The notes under the pieces are model-generated. The model was given only the letters and a program-made list of their open reading frames with translations. It was not told the DNA's origin and did not search any database. DNA of 64,000 bases from Larinioides sclopetarius (taxonomy: Eukaryota), in the NCBI GenBank assembly GCA_964023285.1, contig CAXIEN010000093.1, forward strand, positions 2,567,739 through 2,631,738, given 5' to 3'. The position numbers and the translations under genes were made by a program. Below are positions 2,194 through 54,129 of this stretch, one piece after another (positions within the stretch are counted from its first letter, which is position 1; each line of letters starts with the position of its first letter).

Positions 2194-5100
2194 ATTGCTT
2201 CCCCCACATTTATATATAAATAAGATCAATGTCTGCAGAGACCGCTGCACTACAGCAACGAAATTTGACATGAAGGTGGCCCAGGACAGGAGCCGAGACA
2301 TTTCGAAAAGACTGTTTTAATTAACAAAGTAGATTTTTTGCTACTTAGTGTTTTATCTATTATTTCGCCCTTTCTAATGAAATACCGTACTAAAATTTTT
2401 AAAAGTCTGGAATCTGAACAAATACAGAATTTTTTTCATACCACCTGAAATGTAATTTTACGTCGTCAAATTTTTATTTGTCAGATTGTAAAGGTTAGTA
2501 AACTATGTTTAAACATAGCAAATCATTGGATATAAACATCCACGAACTTTGTGATGAAATATCAGTGGCCTGTTTTCTATTGGAAAAATTTGCCAACTTA
2601 AGAAATTTTGAAATTGATAGCAAAAATGAATTTTATACCAAACTTGAGCATTGTTTTAGGAATTTTTTATTTACTCTTCCGAGGTAATAAATCCGAGGTG
2701 TTGTATACGAGGAACGTAAAATTTCCAAAATAAAAATAATCTTCAACTATTGGCGAAAAACATTTCAACCAAGATCGTTAGGCCTCTCCATGTTAGGATT
2801 TGAATATGAACTGAGGTAAAGTTTAGATGTTTCTGAATTAACCGTAGACTTCTATGAACTAAAAGTTTGCAAAAAAAACAAGAAAAATGCTTGCTAAAAA
2901 TTGTATAAAACAGACTATAAACCTTTTTAAAAAAGAATACATACATTGTAGTTCCATAAGGGCGTAATTTTTTACTTTCGCATGGAACGCTTCGAGTTGG
3001 AGACAAATTTGGAGAGTTTGACGACAAATCGATGATTCCCAAATATGCGTCATTTTCGTGATATCTCAATCAGGAAAGAAGATACCGGAATTTGCTAGGT
3101 ATTTCCATGTGATGTCACGGTCTTTCAGGCAGAGTATATAAGAAGCGTATCTGGACCACGATGAGAGAGTGTTGATCGACTGGAACGAGTTGACTGATCG
3201 AGATCGCCTTAGGCGTTGTATCCGTTGTGCGATCTAGGAAGCTGTTAGGCGCCAAACGGTAGTAAAGCAGCGTGTGGGAACATTGATTGATTTTGGAGTT
3301 TCGCTGCAGAAAGAACTAGAAAGCCAGTGAACGGAGCGCGTTTGAAAGTGCTGTTATTGTCATTATTAGTGATTTGCTGACTAGTTGTGTCGCTAAATCT
3401 ACTGTATTGCAATTATCTGGGAATTGTTGTCTTTTGGGGTTGCTAATCTGTACAAGATATATTTTTCCTGTTACTTGTGCTGAGTATTTTCAGGCATATT
3501 TGTAAATAAACTTTCATTCTCCATTATCCTGCGTATTGGACGGTTTACACCATACAGCCACAGAGCGATTTTTGTAACATTATTAAGTGATATTTGAAAG
3601 ATAAGGGTTGGAATTTGCGTTTCCATAATACTAAATGAAGATTAACATATTTTCGATGGTATAGACAGATATAATCCCTTTATAACAGTGAGTATTATTT
3701 TATATTAAAATGCTGAAAAACTTAAGAAAAAATTATGTGTTCATAAACATAAAGCAATTTATAATTTTTTATAATTAGTTCATATTTAAAAAAAATGGAG
3801 ATAGAAACACAAAGTATTATTTATGCTATTTGAGGCAGCAACAGCGGAATCATAATTGTATAAAATGGAGTAGAATAAAGGACAAGACTAGAAATATACA
3901 AAGAAAATACTCAATAAATAATTATATAATGTAAGGAAGTACAAAAAAGCTTGTAAATGGCAAAAAACTCATTTCTAGAGTTTTTACTATTCGAAAAGTA
4001 ATTAATTCTGGTGGTAGCACAAGCCAGACAGAATCTATTCATACCAAGAATAATATAATCTATTACGGTTTGGGTATTTCCCTCCGTATAAAGAATACAC
4101 TCTCTTAGCTTAGAGGATCAGGAAGTAATAAACGCCTCCCTAGTATGCCCTATACATGTTCAATGACATTCAAGTTAGGTGATCGTGATGGTAATTCGAC
4201 ACGAAGCAGTGTATTAATCATTGACTGACAATAAGAGACCTCTATATTTGAACATTATCATCTATGAAAGCAGATGCCTTCAAGAAATGGGTAAACATAC
4301 TGTAGATTGATGTCATTTTTTGAGCCCGCTGCACTCACAGTAACACGAAGTGATTAGTGCGGTTGGTTAAAACAATATTGGTACATACCATCATCTCTGC
4401 ATATGTTTAATTTCTAATTTGATATCGAGTTACAGAGTTTTTCCAAATCAGTAATTGGTGATAATCTGTCTATAGGTTAAACCAAGAGTTAGCTACAAAG
4501 ATCGCGATTTCCCATTGTTGTTGCATTTATTTGAGAAATGATCCTGAACTAAATATAAGCGGCTTGACGGTTTACTTACTTGCAGCTGATCTGTAAACAG
4601 TTTGCTGTTTTACAGCTCTTCTTGGTGATGTTAAAAAATCTGTAGCAGGCCAATGAGCAATAATTGATCTGTGGTTTCTTGCTTACAGGCACATAAAATC
4701 GCCAACTTGAGAAGTGCTTCTTGAGCTTTTTCTTATTGCTCTTCGTAACAACTTTTCCTTCATTTTGATATCAGTTTTACAAGCTGTAAATAACAGAATG
4801 ACTGGTAATATTATTTATGCGTCCTACGGTTGAAGACCTTATTCAAGAACTCCTATTATCTTTTATCGGCTGGTGTCATACAAATGATATCATCTACTAA
4901 TTTTTCACAATTCAGTACTTACTCTGACATCTGAAACATTGATACAGAATAAATTATACGGAATACGCCAGCAACAAGCCGTTTCTGATATAAGGCACCA
5001 TTCTTTTTAAAAACATGTTAGTCTTCAAAAAGTCTCAGTCTTTTTGTCAAAAGTTTCATTATTTACTTGCGTCCCTATACACGAACGTACCAATGTTTGC

Positions 5101-7699
5101 TTCCCATATATATATATGCATATTTTGTAGTTGCATTTATTTCTTTCTCCAAAATCTCGTTTGTCACTTATCTTTTGGTACAAGGGTATATACAGTGTAT
5201 CCACTAAAATCCTGCCCACTTATAAACTTCGGTTATGACTACAGCTCACAAGTCACGTAATGGGTGTCTAAATGCTATATGTGAATCAGTGTATTCATAG
5301 ACATGCTTCTGTGTTTTATTATTCCTATCACGAAACCTCTACATTATACAAACAAAAAGTCATTATCAGATATGTGGAGCATGTTTTTGACAAAATGTAA
5401 CATTAAGAAATTCTTATAAAAATATTCTTAAGTAAACTGGAATTTCAGTCGCATTTATAAAAAATAATTTTAGTTTTTAATGAATGTTTTAAAAATTTTC
5501 TTTCTTATGATATTTATTGTACTTTAGCCGCTTTGTTTTAGCGCCTCATAATTATGATAAAACTATTTTCTACTTTATAGTAAACTAATGAAAGTTCGTT
5601 TTAGAAAAACTTTTTAGTTTAATTAATTTCTACTTTATAGACTTTAATATATTTATTTTATAAACATGTGTGTATGTGCGTGTGTCTTGTTATTATTCTT
5701 TCTTCAAATTCACGACTAGATGTCATCTCTAATATGGAATCCACATTTAATTAAAATTAATCGATTAACCGATGATTGAATAATGAAAATATTAAAATAT
5801 AATGTTTTTTTCATCGGGAATACACAATTGTAACATATTTAAGAACTCTAGGGCGTCAGGAAGGAATTGCAAAATCGACTATAAAATTCCGTTTTTTGAA
5901 AAAAGTTGTATAATAGCATGTAGAATGTAAATAACACAATTTCTGCTTATGGCTAACTCAGAGCTATATCTTTTAGAAAAAATACTAAAATGTCACGGAT
6001 TTCCTGTTATCTAGAGATAGCAAGCTTTCACAGTCTCTCTTCATATATTGTCATCTCGCTAATATGTGCTTTCAATCATGGATGAAAAGTTGAATGGTGT
6101 TTTCTGTAGGACTTGATAAAAGGTCGCTGACACTTAAACCGACAGCTGTCAATAGACAGGACACATAGCCGACATGACTGGTTTACAAACACAACGTGTA
6201 AATGGCATGCACTTCAGGGTACGTGTCATTTAGGGAACATGTATGCTTATGTAAATTTCTTAATTTTATTAGTTTGTTTTTTAATTTGAATTAAATAATT
6301 TAGCAGTTTTAATGATTAAATGATCTTTTACTGATAATTATAATATCATTTGCGTAATTATAGTATAACTAACTTTAGTATCCAGTTTTGATTAGAATAG
6401 ATTTAAATTCGCACTTAATTAAATATAATTAATTTTATTCTTCCTGCAATTAAATAATCATTTATAAATAAAAAATACCATATTCCTATCCAGTAATTAA
6501 TAAAATATCTTTAAAAGCAACGATTCTTTAAAATAGAAATCAACGCAGTTGACCTAAAAAAGGTCCATAGAATGACATGTGCGAATTTCAAGTCATTACT
6601 GTTCACCACTTCAAAGAAGTTTTTGTGAATCATGTAAAAATGTTTTTTTCATGTTTTATATTATAATTCATAATATGTAATAATAATTGAAACTCATTAT
6701 TGCCTCCATGGAACGCGAAATTAGACACAAATGGAGGAAATCGAGTGCGATCCGACTATGGCCTACAGTAATCTTGCTTGCCTACCTGTTAGTCGCAGTT
6801 ATTTTCATTTTTATATAACTGCAATGTAACATGGGGATATAAAATTTATTCTATGAAGTATTAATCTTTTTTGATAAGTTTTTCTTTATACAGGAATAGC
6901 GCTAGAATTTACCCGAGGAGGATTCCGATTTCCCGGACAAGAGGGTACGCTATTCTCGACGGGGGAATGACCTGTTATATGAAGAGGGACGAGTGCAATG
7001 AAATTGGCCTCAATTTTGCGCTTTATTATTACTCTGTATAGAAATTTTCAGCGACGGTATTCAAATTTTTTCCCCCGATAGAGGGGCATAGCATCCCCGA
7101 CGAGGGGTCTTCTCCCTCCTCTGGAGCCCACTCCTACCTTTATAACTTCCATAATTAATCCTAATGAGAAAGTAAATGAGTATTCATTAAGAAGAATCAA
7201 ATTGCAATGCTTATCGAACAATTGTAATGCTTATAAATAACGCCTTATAGATGTTGATTGTATGAGTATGTATTAGAAATTGCAAAAGACGTGAATAATG
7301 TGAAAACAGTGGAAATTTGCCTAACGAGCACTTCGCATTTTGAGTAATTTGCATAATGAGGAAGAAAAAATGAAAGGAAATTATTTGATGAACGAGTGAC
7401 ATTTTACATAACAAGTAATAAGAAGAGAGAAAGTTCCAAATTTTGGGGCTTTTTCTGTCATATTCAAGGAGCATGTTTTGCTTTAATTCTTATCAAACAT
7501 GATATATAGAGATGTTTTCTAATTTCTTTATATCAAACATGCTATTTAGTGAAGGGCTCTCATCAAATATGGTGTCTAGAGACTAAACATAATCTAAAAG
7601 AATTTTAGAAATACCACTTCCACATCATTTCCTGGTTCATAATGATCGAAAATGCATGGTAAGGAGTTACCAAGAGAACCCTTACTTCTGCTTGGAAGA

Positions 7700-8185
7700 A
7701 AGTTTGGTCGGAGAGTGTAGTCGAGAATGTGACATTGAGAAGTCTGGGACAGTACTGTGTGGATTATGGCGCCTGAAGTTAACGAGATAGCGTCTTTGAT
7801 CAAGATCAGTGGATTGGAGGTGGATATAAATGGTATGGATGAGCTAATGGGAGAGCACAGCCAGGAGCCGACCTTTGAAGTTGAATGTGACATTGAGAAG
7901 TTTGAGACAGTACCGTGTCGACTATGAAGCTTGAAGTCAACGAGATAGCGTCTTTGACCAAGATCAGGGACTGGAGCTGGATACCAATGGTCGATAAGCT
8001 TGTGGGAGAGCACAGCCAGTAGCTGACCCCCGAAGTCGAATGTGACATTGAGAATTCTGAGACAGTACCATGTGGACTATGGAGCCTCAAGTCAACGAGA
8101 TAGCGTCTCTTATCAAGATCAAGTGACTGGAGGTGGATACCAATGATATCGATGAGCTTGTGGGAGAGCACAGCCAGGAGCTGAT
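7700..8185. repeat. Tandem repeat with a unit of about 155-160 bp in 3 copies (satellite-like)
   Basis: The marker 'gaatgtgacattgagaa' recurs at 7724, 7883 and 8038. The track ORFs at 7594-8013 and 7806-8243 encode repeated peptides (LSQTSQCHI..MSHSTS..WLCSP), which is the signature of a tandem array. Confidence 0.85.
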
Positions 8186-8956
8186 AAAAACTTATAAAAA
8201 TTAGTGAAATTTCTAAATGAAAACAGAACTCCCAATCCTGCAAACAACAGTATGCATCATAAATAATTAACTTATTATTTCGATTTTATTTTTTTTTGTT
8301 TTTTGTAAACTGAATTCCATATTGGTTGATTTCGCTATAAAAAAAGATGAAGATTATTCTCGCTCCCCTATAATCTTATATACTCTTCTGTTCTGAAGTA
8401 TCACATGTGATACAAATGTTTATAATTTTAAAAATAATCTGGATAGCAATTACAATTTCGAAACCCGTTATATAAGATGCGATACATAATGGAATGCGTA
8501 GTTTTTTGCCCCCTCCTAATCAACCAATGGCTTTACTTTTCCCCAATTGTGTTTTTGTTGCCGTATTTGAAAAATGAAAATAAAATATGACTGCTAGATT
8601 TCTAAGTTGGTCCTTTTCATCACTTAATTAGAAATATTACCATAACTTTTAAAAATAAATTTTCTTTTGTTAATTATTAATTATACTTATTTGCAGTAAT
8701 TAAAGTTATTTTTTCGGAATTTTTTTTTTAATTCATATTAACTGGTTATATATTTTTGTGTTACATGTGATACAAAATCGGCTTAAGTGAAGTCTGAGAA
8801 TATGTCGCAAGGTGGCTTTAGTTAGTTTTTAATTTTATCTTTCAGATTGATATGAAACTGTTTTTTCATAATTTGTTTTAATTTCACACTGAAATTATCT
8901 TTTGCTTCAAAACTTTGCACATTTTTACTCATTCTTAATTATTATCTGATAACTTT

Positions 8957-9127: not shown

Positions 9128-9440
9128 AAAAATACTTGTTTCAGCTAAGTATCGAATTAATAACTTATAATTAATCTGATGCATTAAATATATGTTAATT
9201 TATGCTTATTTTTCATTTAACAATTTTTATTTATTATATTGTGTGAATAAAGCAAATAAAAAAGCAATGAAAATGTAATAAATACCTCGTAGTGCCTTAA
9301 ATTTTAAGACAAAATTTAAATATTACTTTTCTACTTCAATGTGTTCTAAATTACTAGTCTAGTAACTATTTTAGATATAAGAGTTTTATTTTTGTCTCGA
9401 GTCTGAATAGAATATATGCAATTTTCTTTGAATAAATGCT

Positions 9441-9695
9441 AGGCCGCAGTGGCCTAGTGGTAAGGTCTCGACCTCGTGACAGGAGGCTTGAATTCCACTG
9501 AAGATCCGCCGTGTATGGGGCCTGATGCAAGCTAAATCATACGCAGTGGTCAAACGTATCCGCTCTGGTGTGGCACGGAAGCTTATAGCTGAGGAGCCGG
9601 CATCATCATCTGACCATGGTTCAAACTTACGAAATCCATTCCTAAATAGCCCTCGTTTTGCTTCAAAACGGAACGTTAATATAACCTAACCAAAC
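9441..9695 (+). mobile_element. tRNA-derived SINE, copy A (full length)
   Basis: tRNA-like head (ggcctagtggtaagg: A-box-like). Shared blocks 'ccactgaagatccgccgtgtatgg', 'catctgaccatggttcaaacttacga', 'cctaaatagccctc..gcttcaaaacggaacgttaat'. Tail 'ataacctaaccaaac'. Five further copies in the window. Confidence 0.85.
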
Positions 9696-10140
9696 ATTGA
9701 ATAAATGCTATACTGTTGGATATGTATATTTAGTCGGTCTTTGCAATATAATTGACGTAGCCGGAGTTACGACTACGTGTCTATTTGTTATAGGTTGTTG
9801 TCCTGGATATATAATGCTGTAGTACAGAACGTTATTGTTGATTTGTTTTTTATTTGACTAATAAAATCATATTTGATTTTACTGCCAGATGTGTGAACTC
9901 TGCTCATTGCATTGGCAACTCGCCAACAGTGAAATATTTTTTTGGTTTTTCCGCATGGAAAACATTATTGTATTTTACTTTAATTTATACGGGAAAAGTT
10001 ATTTCGCTTAAAGAGCATTTTGCATTGCTAGTATGCTTCTGGAACGAATTATGCTCTTTTAGCGAGGTTCCAGTTTAAGCTTAGTTTCTCGACGGACACT
10101 GGATTCTCGTTCTGGCCCGGTAAACCCAGGAAGGATTTGA

Positions 10141-10290: not shown

Positions 10291-12442
10291 TGCAAGACAC
10301 AGTATACAATTTCTCAATGGAGGACGATACATTGAACAAATTTTAAGCTGTTACTTGACATATCTGTTTATACTATATAACGCATCACTCCACCCACTGC
10401 AGAGACAGTTTTTCGTGTAGACTGTTCACTCTGCAATGATTTATTCCAGATATCGTCTCCGAAGTTTCTCAATTTGTTGCGATTCTTTCTATGTTCCTCC
10501 GCTGGTTATTTATTGATTTTCAAAATTTTAAATGTCTTCTGAATTTTTATCTATACACGAGGGCTTCAGTAAGTATTAATTCATAATTTATGTTTTCAAA
10601 TGCATTAGCGGATAATTCCAATAGTAAAAATTCAAAAATTTATATCGGTAAAATCTTATTTTTCAATCGCGATTTTCTGCAACAGTCTAAATAAAAGCTA
10701 GTTGTTAACTAAAGTTTTGCTGAAATGAAATGAAATTAATATACTCATAACAAAATAAAATGTAATCAAGGCCGAATAAACGAAGCAAAAATAAAAATAT
10801 AATAAATGAAGCACAAACGAAATAAAAAAATAGATAGACAGGAGATTAAATATCCCATGAATATATTCAAACTTTTTTGTACTTTTAGCGTGGTAAAACT
10901 TTATATATTAATACAGAAGATGTTTTCTAAATAACTTTTAAAAACCAAAATAAAAAGAAAATCATATATCAATACAAAGGTAAGTTGTAAAAGAAAATAT
11001 ATGAATTGCGAAAATATTGCATGGAAAAGTATTGCATTTTTTCTGTGTTAAATCATTTGTCACATGGTTGCTGGAAATGAGTATTATAAACAGCAGTAAG
11101 TGGTAATAAAAAAAATAGTTTTTTGTTGTTGTTATTATCACAAGTTCGAGTCATATAACACATTTACTTATTTTGTTATCTGGATCCATAGTTAGATTTA
11201 TGAACTCTATATAAAAAAGCATTTTTAACAGAAACAGTTTTGAATTTTGCAATTATCCAAATCTTCATTACATCAAAGATTTACCAACTGATATTTGATC
11301 TGTCGAACCGAAATTCATTCCTTTTTTTTCATTTGAACCTTTCTTTATTCGAGACTTCAACATTTCTTTACGAATCATTCCCTCTTCCCTTTTACAAAAT
11401 TTGTAATGGGAATCTCAGAACTCAGAGGCTGTTAGCTTTCGAGTTTTGTAAGAAAGCCTTATGATTTGTGTTGATATGAAATGAAATAAAAAAATGTGAT
11501 TTTAAATCATTTATTTTTGTTAAAATGTACTATTAGTATATTTCAGAGTGTTATTTTTCATTTAAACCATTTTCTTTCCATTATTGTCCTACAGATGGCG
11601 CTACAAACCCTTACACGCAATTTAACAGAATACATATTCAGCGAAAATTCCCTTTCTTTGATTTGTCTTCCTTCGGCTAGCAAAATTATTATTCTTCCTC
11701 GAATATTTTCTAGATCCTGTCAGGATAAATTTCGATATTTTTTACATAATTATTTACATAAACCTGAATAACCGCAACCGAATAATTACGCTTAATGCAT
11801 AATGCTGTCTTGGGAGGAAAAAAAAGCACGCAAGGAGTTTTATAGGTCCAGTATTTAGCTTTTTGTATATCACATGAAAAAGCAATTCGGATTCCTCAAA
11901 TAAATATATTATTTGAGGAATATTTTTTTTTGAAGGAGGCTTCCTCCACTGTTCTGGGACTTCGGAAGAAACAGTGCTTCTCTAGTCTATATAAAGAGAG
12001 TTTATATTCTCTCTTATCTTCTCTATAGATAAATAGGCACGATGTAAAATACCCCTCTATAATTTTCTCCATAACTAAACAACATGATTAGTAGAAAAGT
12101 GAAGGAGTAATAACACCATAACTCATCAATAGCACAGTCAAGGCTGAATTTTTCTTTTATTTGTTTTTCTTTTTTTATACTTCTACTTTTTCTTTTTTTT
12201 CTTTTAATGATAACAAAATACATAACCGCATTACCGTTATTATAAAAATTGTGATTAAAGAAAAAATTCCTAATTCCTATTCGGTAAAAGAAAATTATTG
12301 TGCAAATGATTGTTATGTCACCCAGAATTCAATTTCTGTATAAAAAAGCCGGGTATAAAGAACCTCCAGTCCACAAAATGTTCCCAAAAGAACCTTTTTC
12401 CTTACTTCTGCTCAGTTCGCTCTCTTTCTCTGTTTATATATG

Positions 12443-14689: not shown

Positions 14690-17205
14690 TGTACAAAAAC
14701 TAATTAATAGAATTTGATAAAAATTTATATTTATCTCTATTCTAACATAAATTAGTGCTGGTTAGATTTTGGAATACATCACTCTACATGGGACACTGCT
14801 ATTCGTTTCTTTTTCACAATTTTTACGAAATGATTTCGGCCACGTTAGAAAAAAAACTAATTGACGGATAATTATGAAATTTTTCATTTAGTTTTATTTT
14901 AATATGAATTAATGCTGATTAGATTTTAATGCATATATCCTAACTGGTGACTCTACTATTTCCTTTTTTTTCTCACATTCTTATAAAAAAGTTTTGTGAT
15001 AACCAACACATAATAATTCAGTTGTGATACAGTTCATCTATCATATCCATCTAATGATTTTTTTTGTATAGTCAAGTTTATTTACCAAATTCAAGCATAA
15101 AAATGCCAAATTTAATTGCCATGAACAAGGTACATCACAGGATGGCCAAGGCACCTTGTCTAAAAATAAAGGATTTTGTTTTTTAAATTTCAAATTTCTA
15201 CGCCGTAAGTTGGAAAAAAATACTAAAGGAAATCCTAAAAAAACTAATTGACGGATAATTATGAAATTTTTCATTTAGTTTTATTTTAATATGAATTAAT
15301 GCTGATTAGATTTTAATGCATATATATATCCTAACTGGTGATTCTACTATTTCCTTTTTTTTCTCACATTCTTATAAAAAAAGTTTTGTGATAACCAACA
15401 CATAATAATTCAGTTGTGATACAGTTCATCTATCATATCCATCTAATGATTTTTTTTGTATAGTCAAGTTTATTTACCAAATTCAAGCATAAAAATGCCA
15501 AATTTAATTGCCGTGAACAAGGTACATCACAGGATGGCCAAGGCACCTTGTCTAAAAATAAAGGATTTTGTTTTTTAAATTTAAAATTTCTACGCCGTAA
15601 GTTGGAAAAAAATACTAAAGGAAATCCTAAAAAAACTAATTGACGGATAATTATGAAATTTTTCATTTAGTTTTATTTTAATATGAATTAATGCTGATTA
15701 GATTTTAATGCATATATATATCCTAACTGGTGACTCTACTATTTCCTTTTTTTTCTCACATTCTTATAAAAAAAGTTTTGTGATAACCAACACATAATAA
15801 TTCAGTTGTGATACAGTTCATCTATCATATCCATCTAATGATTTTTTTTGTATAGTCAAGTTTATTTACCAAATTCAAGCATAAAAATGCCAAATTTAAT
15901 TGCCGTGAACAAGGTACATCACAGGATGGCCAAGGCACCTTGTCTAAAAATAAAGGATTTTGTTTTTTAAATTTAAAATTTCTACGCCGTAAGTTGGAAA
16001 AAAATACTAAAGGAAATCCTAAAAAAACTAATTGACGGATAATTATGAAATTTTTCATTTAGTTTTATTTTAATATGAATTAATGCTGATTAGATTTTAA
16101 TGCATATATATATCCTAACTGGTGACTCTACTATTTCCTTTTTTTTCTCACATTCTTATAAAAAAAGTTTTGTGATAACCAACACATAATAATTCAGTTG
16201 TGATACAGTTCATCTATCATATCCATCTAATGATTTTTTTTTGTATAGTCAAGTTTATTTACCAGATTCAAGCATAAAAATGCCAAATTTAATTGCCATG
16301 AACAAGGTACATCATAGGATGGCCAAGGCACCTTGTCTAAAAATAAAGGATTTTGTTTTTTAAATTTCAAATTTCTACGCCGTAAGTTGGAAAAAAATAC
16401 TAAAGGAAATCCTAAAAAAACTAATTGACGGATAATTATGAAATTTTTCATTTAGTTTTATTTTAATATGAATTAATGCTGATTAGATTTTAATGCATAT
16501 ATATATCCTAACTGGTGACTCTACTATTTCCTTTTTTTTCTCACATTCTTATAAAAAAAGTTTTGTGATAACCAACACATAATAATTCAGTTGTGATACA
16601 GTTCATCTATCATATCCATCTAATGATTTTTTTTTGTATAGTCAAGTTTATTTACCAAATTCAAGCATAAAAATGCCAAATTTAATTGCCGTGAACAAGG
16701 TACATCATAGGATGGCCAAGGCACCTTGTCTAAAAATAAAGGATTTTGTTTTTTAAATTTCAAATTTCTACGCCGTAAGTTGGAAAAAAATACTAAAGGA
16801 AATCCTAAAAAAACTAATTGACGGATAATTATGAAATTTTTCATTTAGTTTTATTTTAATATGAATTAATGCTGATTAGATTTTAATGCATATATATATC
16901 CTAACTGGTGACTCTACTATTTCCTTTTTTTTCTCACATTCTTATAAAAAAAGTTTTGTGATAACCAACACATAATAATTCAGTTGTGATACAGTTCATC
17001 TATCATATCCATCTAATGATTTTTTTTTGTATAGTCAAGTTTATTTACCAAATTCAAGCATAAAAATGCCAAATTTAATTGCCGTGAACAAGGTACATCA
17101 TAGGATGGCCAAGGCACCTTGTCTAAAAATAAAGGATTTTGTTTTTTAAATTTCAAATTTCTACGCCGTAAGTTGGAAAAAAATACTAAAGGAAATCCAA
17201 AAGTC
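14690..17205. repeat. Satellite-like tandem array: 392-393-bp unit in about 6 copies, plus one degenerate proto-unit at the 5' edge
   Basis: The marker 'ctaattgacggataattatgaaa' recurs at 14857, 15243, 15635, 16028, 16421 and 16814. The track shows six near-identical 74-99-aa minus-strand ORFs (MKNFIIIRQLVFLGFPLVFFSNLRRRN..), one per unit. Copies are more than 97% identical. Confidence 0.95.
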
Positions 17206-18445: not shown

Positions 18446-18529
18446 CTTTGTTGTTAAAAAAGATTTTTTTCTTAAAGATAGAGATATTATATAGATTTGA
18501 TATGTCAACGTCCAATTTTGAAGTAACAA

Positions 18530-18745
18530 AAGGGCCCTTTTGGGACTAACTTCGTGATTTTCCACCACGGTCAGATGACGAGGAGGACACCTGAACTAGT
18601 AACCCTCTCTCCAAACTTCGCACAACGGCTCGACCCAAGAAGTCAGATTTAAAGTGTACATACCCACATATACAGAGGTTCTTAAGTGGAATCGGGCTCT
18701 GAACCTGCAACCCTCTGTACCTGGGCCACCACGGTCTCTATACTG
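18530..18745 (-). mobile_element. tRNA-derived SINE, copy B (minus orientation, head partly truncated)
   Basis: The reverse complement contains 'cctcgtcatctgaccgtggtgg' and 'ggttcagagcccgattccacttaagaacctctgtatatgtgggtatgtacactttaaatctgac', matching copy D. Confidence 0.75.
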
Positions 18746-20100
18746 CATATAACTTGATTTAAAAGCTTAGAAATTTTGATGTATATAGTTATATAGCTAA
18801 GATCGTACCAGTGAAACAAGACGTATTAAACCGGCATTTAGAGTTACGTGTCAAGATACACGCCAAAGAAAGTATTTGTTACAGTATCGAAACATGGATG
18901 TACACATTTGTTCTTACAAGAGAGACACACAATTAACAGTGTTAACCATTACGATAAGCTGAAATGGATAGCAGAAAACCGTAACCATTAATGAAATTAC
19001 ATACCAAATGGTAGTATTGCTCTGGGAATATACAGTAATATTGTTTCAAAGGCTTTCTTAGCATTAGATTCACTATAGCTTGATCTCTAGCAGAGGTATA
19101 CAGCCCATAGATAATCTAACCAGCTGGGAAACGTGTTTACTGATGCTATTTCTATAAAAGACAGCTCACACTTGCAGAAAATATAATAACAATCTTTATC
19201 GAAAAGAGAAAAAAACTATATTCATCAATCGAAGGTATGGAAGCTGAATGGTGTTGAAGAGGGTATATTGCAGCATTATTTCTAAGAGGTTCTGAATTAT
19301 AGCTCTAGTAAAGATAATATTGGTGATTGTCCCATGGTATTATTTTATATATATGATGTAGAAAATCTATAAAGAAATATTTAGTCATAAATTTATATAT
19401 AAGCATTACTTTTATTGTATAGTTTGAAATGGAAACACAATAGTATAAATAAACGTTTTTTAAATCGCGTAGCTTCTTGGTATTTTAATATCAAGAATAC
19501 GCATCGGTATTATTTTATATGATAGATTTTCTAAAATTGAGTTTAAAGATTTTATATTCATTCAAGTTTTCTTTTAGTGACGAAAAAAAAAAAATCCTAC
19601 CGGAATCCATCTTCACCCGGATTTAATATTATTCTTCTTATCTTCTTATTGTAAGAACTTATTGTAATATATATGCGCAGTTTTGTTCAGTGTGGGTTGA
19701 AAACTATTAATTCTTGGTACAGACGCTTTGCCAAAAGAATATATCGGTTACTTCGCAACAATAGCGTAGAATTTATTATGACGTTAAATAAAGTACGGGA
19801 AGTTTATGATGTATTTTCTTGGACTGATCGGTAGGGAAATTCCACATGTTTACTACAAAAACATTATAAATGTTTTCACACAAAGAGTGAAGATCTGGCA
19901 ATCCATCGATTCTCATTGTCATTGCGAATCAATCCCCAAATGGCAAAATGGAATGGGGTGGTGTAAAATCGCGAAATTAGAATAAATGTTTTTAAAAGCT
20001 TCTTTTTATTAGTGTAAAAAAAGCGGAGCATAACTTTTTAAATTGAAAATAACGATTTCCAGTTAAACTCATAAAAGCCTGATTCGATAATAACTCAGAT

Positions 20101-20390
20101 GTATTAACACCTCATTTTGAACAATTCCCGTTGGAACGAAGCTCTTGAATTTGAACCACGGTCAGATGAAAAGGACGACAACCGGTCAGGTGCCACCTCT
20201 CCACACTTCTTCATCAAGCCTGTGTGTGTGTGGGGGGGGGGGGAGGGCCCTAGGCTTCCTGCGCATGGTTTATCGGACCCACATGCTAGGCAAGGATTAA
20301 GAAGAATTGGGTTTCGAACTTAGAACCCTCTGGCCCCGACGTCGAGACCCTGCTTCAAAGCTACTTCTCTCCGCAGAGGCAGTCACAGAA
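20101..20390 (-). mobile_element. tRNA-derived SINE, copy C (minus orientation), interrupted by a (GT)n(G)n microsatellite at 20222-20246
   Basis: The reverse complement gives the head '..ggtctcgacgtcggggccagagggttctaagttcgaaaccc' (B-box-like GGTTCGAAACC), then 'catctgaccgtggttcaaatt', then the tail '..gttaatac'. Confidence 0.8.
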
Positions 20391-47518: not shown

Positions 47519-47786
47519 TTGTGGTGGGTGGCCTAGTGGTAAAGTGGATGGAGGGTTCCAGGTTCTAAACCCTATTTCATCCAAGATCTGCCGTATATGT
47601 GGACCGGGTGTACATTAAATCTAACATTAAGTGTCAAACATCCCGCTGTTGGTCCGACGTGTAATTTTGATGAGGGGTATCAGTACATATGACGTCCTTA
47701 TCATCTGACTATGGTTCAAAATTATGAATATGGTACTAAAATAGCCGTAGTATTATTAAAATAATAGAATGTTAATTTAATTGAAT
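47519..47786 (+). mobile_element. tRNA-derived SINE, copy D
   Basis: Head 'gtggtgggtggcctagtggtaaag..ggttccaggttctaaaccc'. Body 'agatctgccgtatatgtggacc..catctgactatggttcaaaattatga..ctaaaatagcc'. Tail 'gttaatttaattgaa'. Confidence 0.8.
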
Positions 47787-49856: not shown

Positions 49857-50056
49857 CCAGGCTCAAAGCCCATTTCCACTGAATGTCCGCTGTGCTTGTG
49901 AGCATGAGTCAAATGTTGTCCTGGTGATGTGGCGTCCAAGCTTAGAGTAGGAACCACCATTCTCGTCATCTGACCGCGGTTCACAATTACGATGTCCGTC
50001 CCCAAATAGTCCCCGATTGCTTCAAAATCGGACGTTAATGTAACTAAACTAAACTG
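49857..50056 (+). mobile_element. tRNA-derived SINE, copy E (5'-truncated, lacking the tRNA head)
   Basis: 'ccaggctcaaagcccatttccactgaatgtccgctgtg..catctgaccgcggttcacaattacgatgtccgtccccaaatagtccccgattgcttcaaaatcggacgttaat' followed by the tail 'gtaactaaactaaac'. Confidence 0.8.
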
Positions 50057-50812: not shown

Positions 50813-50984
50813 AAAGTTTTAATAAGAAGTGTCAAGAGGCACCTGACGCTGTAGAAGCCACAGACCGCGCTTGGCGCGAGACATCCTTTTTGTGTCGTCC
50901 TTATTTGGCGTTTTATCACTTTCGATAAGTAGTCCACTCATTAGGTAGTTTTTTAATTTTTTTGCTTCTTTATGTTTTTGAGTC

Positions 50985-51252
50985 TGCGGTGGCCTACACA
51001 GCCTTGTGATTGAAGGGTCGCAGGCGCGAAACCAGATTCCACTGAAGATCCGCCGTGCATGGGACCTATTACGTGCTAAATCATATGTAATAGCCAAACG
51101 TCCTCCCAGTCGTATGGCTTGGAAGCTTGGAGAGGGGAGTGCCGCGGCTCTGGTGTCATCCTCGCCATCTGACCGCGGTTGAAAGTTACGATGTCCGATC
51201 CTAAATAGCCCTCCTGTCGCTTCAAAACGGGACGTTAATTATTATTATTAAT
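50985..51252 (+). mobile_element. tRNA-derived SINE, copy F. Its tail reads 'acgttaat' followed by (TTA)n, then abuts the LINE fragment
   Basis: 'tgcggtggcctacacagcc..ccactgaagatccgccgtgcatggg..gctaaatcatatg..catctgaccgcggttgaaagttacgatgtccgatcctaaatagccctcctgtcgcttcaaaacgggacgttaat|tattattattaat'. Confidence 0.85.
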
Positions 51253-52035
51253 CCACTGAAAGGGAACCGACCAGACAAGGTTTACGGTTATACAAAACCC
51301 CTCTCAGCGTAAATGTGGAAAACAAAGGAAGAGGAAAAAAAAAAAATAAGGCAAAGAAAATCTGAATTGCAAGTGGAAGCTATAAAAGTCTTTTTTTAGT
51401 CCATGATGATGTCTTGTTGCCGTTCATGAAGGATTTTCATGATACACATAATTCGTACAAGGGATCTTTTGTCATTTACAATTTTTTCACACCATGTTGA
51501 TAGATTTTCAGCACTGGGCTTCGTGAAGTGAAAGTGTTTGGTCATTGGACATTCTGTTGCGTAGTGATTTGGGTCTCCTTTAGCGCCGCAGACACACTGA
51601 TCGTGAGAGCATAAACCGAACCTGTGAAGATAGGCCACGAACGGCCCATGCCCTGTGATGAATTGGTTGATTTTTGAGTTGAAAGAGGCTCGATTTACGT
51701 TGACTTGAGGAACGAAGAGGAAGGTCCGTCGCCCCGTTTCCGAGAGGTTCCACCTATCTTGCCAGATTTCAAGGGAACATTTTTTGAGATTCTTTTTAAG
51801 GTAAGATTTAGGGAGATCAGTATTGATGATGAGAGAACTGTCCACAGTACCCTGCCTGGCTAATTGGTCAGCAATTTCATTCCCTAGTACCCCCGAATGT
51901 CCTTTTACCCAGGAGATGGTAACTTCGGTTGTCAAGGTGTTCGAGATATTCAGGATTTCCCGAGCAATAGGTGAGTTTGGCTGGAGGGCAGCAAGTGCTT
52001 TCAGGGACGATTGACTATCCGTGTGAATAGTGCAT
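51253..52035 (-). mobile_element. 5'-truncated non-LTR retrotransposon (LINE) fragment: RNase H domain, C-terminal Cys/His motif and a roughly 140-bp 3'UTR, ending at or near a (TAA)n tract
   Basis: Minus-strand translation of 51396-52030 gives '..ICTIHTDSQSSLKALAALQPNSPIAREILNISNTLTTEVTISWVKGHSGVLGNEIADQLARQGTV..' (an RNase H signature, TD..S..A / VKGH.G..GNE.AD.LA) followed by 'HDQCVCGAKGDPNHYATECP'. Among arthropod non-LTR elements, RNase H is found in the I, R1 and LOA clades. The frame closes upstream at about 52040, which indicates 5' truncation. The (TAA)4 at 51241-51252, read on the minus strand, may belong to this element or to the SINE F tail. Confidence 0.8.
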
Positions 52036-54129
52036 ATAACCTAACTTAACTTAGTTTTTGTGGTACTGCTAACGAATCTGAGGTTTTCCATCAAAATGTT
52101 TTGTTGGAATTTTAGTTATAGCCAAAAAGCATGAAAAAACTTTTATTCTAATCTTTGCTAATAAATAAAAAGCTATCTTTGGTATATCGTCATTATATAT
52201 CAGATAATCAGGGCAGGATTTCATACAACTTGGGTCTACATAACTTTGTCAACACTGCTTGTTTCTAAGCTGACGAGCTATCACTGTTATGTTAATGCAA
52301 TATACCCCTTCGAGGACGTATCGAGAGTTAAAGGATGAGAGGCCGCCGTCTAAGTATGTGGGTTCTCTCCAACCCGATGGCACAATAATGGTGTTGATGC
52401 TTTTAGGACTCACTCCAAAAAAGGACACACATACCCTGGTAAAACGGGGTGTTGTTGCATCGGACTGTTGTAAACGGGACTATTTTTTAGGAAACACAGC
52501 GCCCAACAATGCCGTCCCTTTTGTTCCGATTCGGACGATAAGGCAAGGTAGGAGTATATTCTTTGTAGTTAAAACAATATAGCTAAGTATTCAAAGGTTT
52601 ACCGTTATTCTTTTTTTAGTTTGCATGGTTCTCTTTTAGCGATAAAAGACCATAAATACCTTTCAATATAGGTATTTTATTCATTAGTGAAAGAAATATT
52701 GCTGGAAACTCTGTGAAATATATTATTTCTGTTTTGATATTTAGTTTTTCCTCCTTAATGCGATTAAGGAAGATGAAAGATTTGAAATGTAAAGATTATA
52801 AAGAAATATAAGGAACTTCCAAAAAAAATTCGAGTCATACTCGATTTCTGGATTAAAAATTCTAAATGGTATCCAGGAATCGAAGGAAGCAAATACCTTC
52901 TCTTCGTTGTATTAAAATTTATAAATATACTTCTCACCTGATGAATAATTTGTTTTAATATAGGTTGCTTTTGAATTTGGATAACTTTAAAGATAAAGAG
53001 AAATATCTAGCAGAAAAGCATATTTTTCATTCAGAATTTTTGCTTTCGTCATTAAAATGGTAGCCTTAAAACATTTTACACAGGCAATTCACACTCTTGT
53101 TATCAATAAAGAAATAAAAATATAATGCTTCATTGCAACACTCCTATCGCAATAAATTCTTGAGCATTTAGTTACGAGATAACTAAATTAGAAAGCAAGT
53201 TGGAAAATATTTTTTCTAAATTGCCCGAGCTATCTTAGACACTGCATTGAGCATTATTAAATCTGGGCTGAATGCCAACAAAATGCATTTTTTAAATGTT
53301 AGAATAAAGTTGTTTTGTGTAGAAAAAAGTCCCATTTCTGAAACTTTCGTGCACTTAGAACTTAAGATATCATTTCTTCTCTTTTTAATTCAGTAATAGG
53401 TTTAAATTTTATAACATTTTTGTAGTCTATAGAAAATTTTAGAATAGTCTTGGGTTTTAGAAGAATATTAGTACAGTTTTAATGATTGTAGATTAGAAGA
53501 AAAGTGTAAATAATTAATGTAGAGAACATATTTTGTGATAAAATTATTTAATTCAGGCTATGTAAATTCAAATTTTACGACGTTTTAAGGAATTATAATT
53601 TTTGAATGGGTTTCAATAATTTCATATGCACCTATTAATTTTATTTTCAAAGCACAGATAAAGTTACTTGTTTGAAAATCTTTCTTAGAAGCACTTTTTC
53701 ATTTTATTAGTTGTAACTCATTGATCTGTGTTTACGACTTGTATTTTTGTGTTTAGTGTTTGTTTTGTTTCGTGTACTATATAATTGCAGATTATTCTGT
53801 AGTGAACATTTTCTAAGCAATTTAATATTTCTGCAATTGCTTTGATTTTCGTAATTCGATTCTGTAATTGTTAAAAAGTTTGTGCTTTCAATCTAAGATT
53901 TCCGGAAGTTAATGTTCTTCATTTCTAGAGCAAAGACACTATAAACAGTAGTGTATATAGTCGGTTGCAGCTCGCAACGGGTATCAGCTCTGAGTGGTGA
54001 CAAAAAATTGCCGTTTTTGTATTAATAGCTTTTCTGATTGATAAAATAACATGTTAAACAATTGAATGGACTTAACAACCATTTGTGAAATTCCGGGGAA
54101 GCGATGTATGGTCCGTGGGGTGAAGGGAC

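Follow-up and report, generated by a model that had tools for sequence, protein, structure and literature searches.

In the 64-kb stretch of Larinioides sclopetarius DNA analyzed here (the window), a piece of a LINE encoding part of an RNase H lies directly against a SINE, and the question raised by this locus is whether the LINE piece entered the tail of an older SINE or whether the two elements merely came to lie side by side. The original prediction held that a 5'-truncated LINE had been inserted, in antisense orientation, into a pre-existing SINE tail and had split it. An intact member of the SINE family, copy A (9441-9695, plus strand), whose 13-14-bp target duplication, TTGAATAAATGCT(A), lies at 9428-9441 and 9697-9710, served as the reference and as the query in nhmmer searches. 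Besides the split copy (copy F), five copies or fragments were retrieved from the window and eight from the fetched spider loci. Copy F, on the plus strand, consists of two parts, 50981-51239 and 52036-52053. The match of copy F to copy A covered hmm positions 9-241 of 255 (E = 2.2e-29), and its 5' end, AGTCTGCGGTGGCC (family start, AGGCCGCGGTGGCC), was placed at 50981 rather than at the predicted 50985. Copy F is degraded, with 83% identity to the SINE family consensus and a 10-nt deletion that takes out part of box A. The head and body of this copy (50981-51239) end in ...CAAAACGGGACGTTAAT, and alignment with copy A extends as far as ...ACGGGACGTTAAT, at position 51239. Thereafter, copy F continues TATTATTATTAATCCACTG..., and the equivalent bases in copy A are ATAACCTAACCAAAC.

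The SINE tail was found on the far side of the LINE fragment. Starting at the first base past the LINE homology, positions 52036-52053 (plus strand) read ATAACCTAACTTAACTTA, i.e., ATAAC CTAAC TTAAC TTA, which matches the pentamer pattern of the SINE family tails and agrees with the copy A tail at 13 of 15 bases, with the first 10 bases exact. When both strands of the 64-kb window were searched, the 10-mer ATAACCTAAC was present at just two sites, one in the copy A tail (9681) and the other at 52036, and these same two sites were the only ones among about 128,000 positions to match the copy A tail at 13 or more of 15 bases. The tail match at 52036 is therefore far beyond chance, as the prediction for 52030-52055 had it. 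Moreover, when copy F was rebuilt from 50981-51239 and 52036-52053, it was colinear and gap-free with five other SINE copies through the breakpoint, and no bases had been lost; the left part halts at the conserved GTTAAT of the family, exactly where the right part picks up.

The flanks of the composite provided further evidence. A 7-mer, GTTTTTG, abuts the 5' end of the SINE (50974-50980, plus strand), and an identical 7-mer directly follows the displaced tail (52054-52060, plus strand). This duplication, which was absent from the original prediction, brackets the whole SINE and LINE composite; in an empirical control, the chance of GTTTTTG recurring within a 30-nt window was 0.7%. Because the duplication flanks the entire composite, the head of the SINE and the tail beyond the LINE represent one insertion, with the SINE arriving first and the LINE second. 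We also considered that two independent insertions might have landed next to each other, leaving a tail-less SINE beside a LINE fragment (or the reverse), with the far-side ATAACCTAAC being coincidental. The region is indeed rich in transposons and holds three SINE copies within 3.7 kb. However, the only occurrences of the 10-mer in this window are in SINE tails, one of them exactly at the LINE boundary (fixed-position probability, about 1e-5), the 7-bp duplication encloses both elements, and the right SINE part continues exactly from the GTTAAT at which the left part breaks off. Coincidental adjacency is thus effectively refuted by the tail match, the colinear alignment, and the bracketing duplication, and we give it practically no credence. 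These findings demonstrate that the LINE fragment is nested within an older SINE, as had been predicted.

Read on the SINE strand, the insert includes nine T runs of at least four residues. Pol III terminates at T runs and should do so here in any transcript that starts in the SINE head; the composite, therefore, has probably not been mobilized as one unit.

The extent of the LINE fragment was determined by comparing the window, by blastn and in LINE-sense orientation, with six loci of Araneus ventricosus (L001-L006). Homology to these loci ran from window position 52035 down to about 51238, delimiting a 796-bp, 5'-truncated fragment on the minus strand (51240-52035), antisense to the SINE, with 82-85% nucleotide identity to A. 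ventricosus family members. At the 5' side, the LINE family reads ...GGCAAA|ATGCACTATTCA, and the window minus strand reads ...AAGTTAGGTTAT|ATGCACTATTCAC; this divergence sets the truncation point at 52035, exactly where the family homology stops. Both the antisense orientation and the 5' truncation of the prediction were thereby borne out.

At the other end, the fragment terminates in a (TAA)4 repeat (51240-51251, minus strand), the fourth unit of which has base 51239 in common with the SINE; the minus strand across this junction reads ...CAGTGGAT TAA TAA TAA TAA|TTAACG. Six A. ventricosus copies with an intact 3' end were available, of which five end in ...GTGGAT(TAA)2-6 and one in a degenerate TAAGAAGAAGAAAA. 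More fully, the A. ventricosus copies end in ...GGTTCCCnnnnGTGGAT(TAA)2-6, and the DNA beyond is unrelated from one locus to the next. Because the family members share this ending and diverge beyond it, the LINE genuinely terminates in (TAA)n, in agreement with the prediction. Two distant full-length relatives, L007 and L008, showed no recognizable terminus within their contigs and are uninformative on the tail. The 3'UTR proper occupies 51252-51395 (minus strand) and, with (TAA)4 included, is 156 nt long, not 140 nt as predicted. An alignment of seven copies revealed a conserved block, ACGCTGAGAGGGTTTTGTATAACCGTAAACC...GGTTCCC..GTGGAT. Just before (TAA)n, window 51252-51320 (minus strand) and the equivalent positions of L001-L006 also have ACGCTGAGAGGG...CCCTnnCGGTG in common. 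Among these seven copies, 0 of 15 pairs of the stem predicted by RNAalifold for the 3'UTR showed a compensatory change.

The coding part of the fragment is a remnant of the ORF2 C-terminus (51396-52035, minus strand), comprising about 212 LINE-derived codons with no stop or frameshift. By translation, the minus-strand open frame spans 213 codons (52037-51399) and ends at a stop codon at 51398-51396; upstream, the frame is blocked by a stop at 52043-52041, which lies within the SINE tail. The C-terminal half of an RNase H domain was recognized at 51849-52025 (minus strand), with HTDSQS (52008-52025) and KGHSGVLGNEIADQLA (51858-51905), and profile positions 100-139 of 141 of Pfam RNase_H (PF00075) were matched (E = 1.2e-7). 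In tblastn, the fragment corresponded to residues 971-1183 of the full-length relative P0071 (E = 1.6e-45), in which the RNase H domain spans residues 911-1037. Since the fragment starts at residue 971, the N-terminal part of the domain is missing and lay 5' of the truncation; the predicted RNase H is thus present as its C-terminal half only. Downstream in the frame is a C-terminal Cys/His motif, CVCGAKGDPNHYATEC (CX1CX7HX4C; 51549-51596, minus strand), and the UniRef name of one homologue is that of a reverse transcriptase zinc-binding domain protein.

A search of the ORF against a collection of 5.8 billion proteins returned 69 homologues with 57-89% identity, almost all of them short A. ventricosus "hypothetical proteins." An exhaustive HMMER search yielded 6,626 relatives of the ORF fragment, including full-length proteins of 1,183-1,243 aa, and the fragment aligned at the extreme C-terminus of the full-length relatives (e.g., residues 974-1182 of P0071). 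By homology, the window is spider DNA and the LINE fragment belongs to a multi-copy family. Four of these relatives (P0071, P0074, P0084, and P0089) carry PF14529 (Exo_endo_phos_2), PF00078 (RVT_1), and PF00075 (RNase_H). Endonuclease and reverse transcriptase are thus found together in one protein in the relatives, and the window fragment itself lacks both. A CCHC motif is likewise encoded by the full-length relatives. The LINE copy at A. ventricosus locus L004, a member of the same nucleotide family as the window LINE, contains a reverse transcriptase contiguous with RNase H (6227-8620), and the full-length relative L008 contains two ORFs, with an upstream ORF1 of 492 aa. With respect to names for the LINE relatives, a cluster look-up and a protein search with P0071 gave only unnamed metagenome or Logan proteins. 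In the A. ventricosus assembly (GCA_013235015.1), dozens of 5'-truncated copies of the C-terminus of this LINE are annotated as separate genes (P0001-P0069), under the labels "hypothetical protein" or "RNase H type-1 domain-containing." These gene calls represent annotation inflation from an unmasked repeat.

The uninterrupted frame also raised the possibility that the 213 codons are a domesticated or still-expressed protein fragment. There is neither a stop nor a frameshift over about 640 nt, and similar A. ventricosus fragments have been annotated as proteins. Against this, there is no upstream ATG in context, the frame begins inside the RNase H domain, and the A. ventricosus annotations are automatic "hypothetical protein" calls. 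Furthermore, many sister copies with differing truncation points have an open C-terminus at unrelated loci, as would be expected of young copies. Exaptation of the frame was rejected on the lack of an ATG, the half domain, and the same open C-terminus in sister copies, and we regard it as highly improbable.

The I element encodes endonuclease, reverse transcriptase, and RNase H in its ORF2 and has a 3' end of several TAA repeats (PMC4122939, PMC3747384). Like the I factor of Drosophila melanogaster, the spider LINE has relatives that carry an apurinic-type endonuclease, reverse transcriptase, and RNase H; it has an RNase H followed by a Cys/His motif, a relative (L008) with two ORFs, and a 3' terminus of TAA repeats. 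Unlike for the I factor, the host is a spider, and only the last 796 bp are held in the window. RNase H is also borne by other LINE clades, e.g., LOA, Tad, R1, Nimb, and Ingi, and the spider LINE may belong to one of these instead. The window LINE fits an I-factor-like element by its architecture and (TAA)n terminus, and its membership in the I clade is putative.

We next turn to how the LINE piece came to lie in the SINE tail. The starts of the sister copies vary (L004, about 6227; L006, 7408; L001, 6780; L005, 7891; L003, 7911), such that the six loci have the 3' end in common and differ in their 5' starts, the pattern of LINE 5' truncation. Target duplications of 10-14 bp (L003), 9-12 bp (L006), and 6-7 bp (L005) were found at three of the sister copies. 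At the window copy, by comparison, the duplication or microhomology at the junctions amounts to 0-2 bp (AT), and no target bases were lost. At the 5' junction, the sequences are ...GGCAAA|ATGCAC in the LINE consensus, GGTTAT|ATGCAC in the window, and GGTTAT|AT|TAACG in the SINE, with AT common to both elements; at the 3' junction, LINE and SINE have the final A of the TAA run in common. In LINE sense, the original target was GGTTAT-AT-TAACG, and the observed sequence is GGTTAT-AT-GCAC...GGAT(TAA)4-TTAACG.

These features, taken together, make it highly likely that the LINE piece entered the tail of the older SINE by target-primed reverse transcription. According to this model, a tRNA-like SINE of about 275 bp would have inserted first, generating the 7-bp duplication GTTTTTG, and the LINE would later have integrated in its tail between ...CGTTAAT and ATAACC.... 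The plus strand would have been nicked after ...TTAAT (51239), and the 3'-OH at 51239, with 1-2 nt potentially base-paired to the LINE RNA, would have served as the primer for copying this RNA from its (UAA)n end. The polymerase would have halted, or been interrupted, at 796 nt, within the region coding for RNase H, and the cDNA end would have been joined across the break at the 2-nt AT microhomology with a target duplication of 0-2 bp, the product being a dead antisense LINE 3' fragment that splits a dead SINE. Our inference of where the nick fell, of the priming, and of 5' joining through microhomology draws on the junction sequence of this single locus.

One feature speaks against a standard insertion, namely, the target duplication of at most 2 bp here versus 6-14 bp in three sister copies; this difference suggests that second-strand cleavage was atypical or that a pre-existing break was used. 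It was also considered, accordingly, that the SINE tail already had a double-strand break and that LINE cDNA patched it, independently of the LINE endonuclease, a scenario for which the near absence of a target duplication (0-2 bp, against 6-14 bp in the sister copies) and the 2-nt microhomologies at the junctions would argue. However, L1 break-repair insertions are often without the 3' terminus, and the window fragment has kept its authentic 3' end in full, down to the four TAA units; nor were target bases lost, and the SINE realigns gap-free at the junction. Blunt or near-blunt second-strand cleavage, moreover, is a minority outcome of ordinary target-primed insertion. We therefore consider break repair unlikely and favor target-primed insertion. 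As in 5'-truncated insertions of mammalian L1, the spider LINE shows a complete 3' end, variable 5' ends, and a 2-nt 5' microhomology; unlike mammalian L1, it terminates in (TAA)n rather than poly(A), and this insertion is almost without a target duplication.

Two of the A. ventricosus loci showed additional rearrangements. At L003, copies at 7911-8536 and 11379-12028, about 3.47 kb apart, have the same truncation point, flanks, and target duplication; judging from this identity, the pair is a local segmental or tandem duplication and not two insertions. At L002, the LINE copy (2814-3071 and 6035-6524) is interrupted by about 3 kb of inserted sequence and is cut off at 6524 by another element, beyond which lies a (CACG)n/(CA)n microsatellite.

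With regard to the SINE, the family is about 255-290 bp in length and resembles tRNA-derived SINEs in its target duplications of 7-14 bp and its variable 3' tail of 5-nt units. The SINE consensus contains a box A (TGGCCTAGTGG) and a box B (GGTTCGAAACC) 44 nt apart, both of which are also present in copy L004c. When run in pseudogene mode, ARAGORN detected a tRNA-Gln-like cloverleaf in one of six SINE heads. No tRNA was detected by standard ARAGORN, nor by Rfam at the gathering score over the whole window or at E up to 10 in two SINE copies. An origin of the SINE from a tRNA is thus plausible but weakly shown. A search of the literature on spider SINEs found nothing specific. Within the window, three SINE copies in the same orientation lie within 3.7 kb (47528-47786, a 5'-truncated copy at 49872-50053, and 50981-51239), and the minus strand has further copies at 18496-18694 and 20098-20366.

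It had also been asked whether the LINE clade of the fragment might be the mobilizing partner of the SINE. Ahead of the pentamer tail, the SINE 3' end reads ...GCTTCAAAACGGGACGTTAAT, and in 11 copies a conserved GGGACGTTAAT precedes a tail of variable 5-nt units (e.g., ATAAC-CTAAC-CAAAC, GTAAC-TAAAC-TAAAC, and ATAAC-TAAAC-AAA). When the 3' 100-120 nt of the SINE were compared with the LINE 3'UTR by local alignment, no similarity beyond that of shuffled sequences was found, with 161 and 216 of 500 shuffles reaching the observed score. Because the 3' similarity is no better than that of shuffles and because the tail units differ (5-nt units versus (TAA)n), these comparisons do not support the window LINE as the partner of the SINE. 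Moreover, tblastn with 55 long ORF2 proteins detected no other LINE family, and hence no candidate partner, in the window or the fetched loci. The original prediction had also likened a SINE tail to the arthropod telomeric repeat, but the telomere-like CCTAA, the complement of the arthropod TTAGG unit, was present in only 2 of the 11 tails, those of copies A and F, and is not a family trait. It is conceivable, but improbable, that the variable pentamer tail (ATAAC/CTAAC/CTAAA...) marks mobilization by an unseen LINE with a telomere-like tail or that the I-like LINE has a preference for AT-rich SINE tails as targets. Either reading, if true, would mean a specific relationship between SINE and LINE, or between LINE and target, in spiders.

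A 5'-truncated LINE nested in an older SINE is textbook biology, and the present case is clean but ordinary. Its significance beyond annotation is small; it provides base-precise boundaries, termini, and a relative age for two orb-weaver repeat families, both of which may be undescribed, and delimits them as an I-like LINE that terminates in (TAA)n and a tRNA-like SINE with a pentamer tail. These definitions can be used in repeat libraries and would keep the RNase H remnant out of gene calls, a frequent error in A. ventricosus. Separately, a tandem array was noted at window positions 14850-17202, where it first became visible as ATAACC recurring every 392-393 bp. The array consists of 6.0 copies of a 393-bp unit that are 99% identical, and it is a young satellite or tandem duplication.
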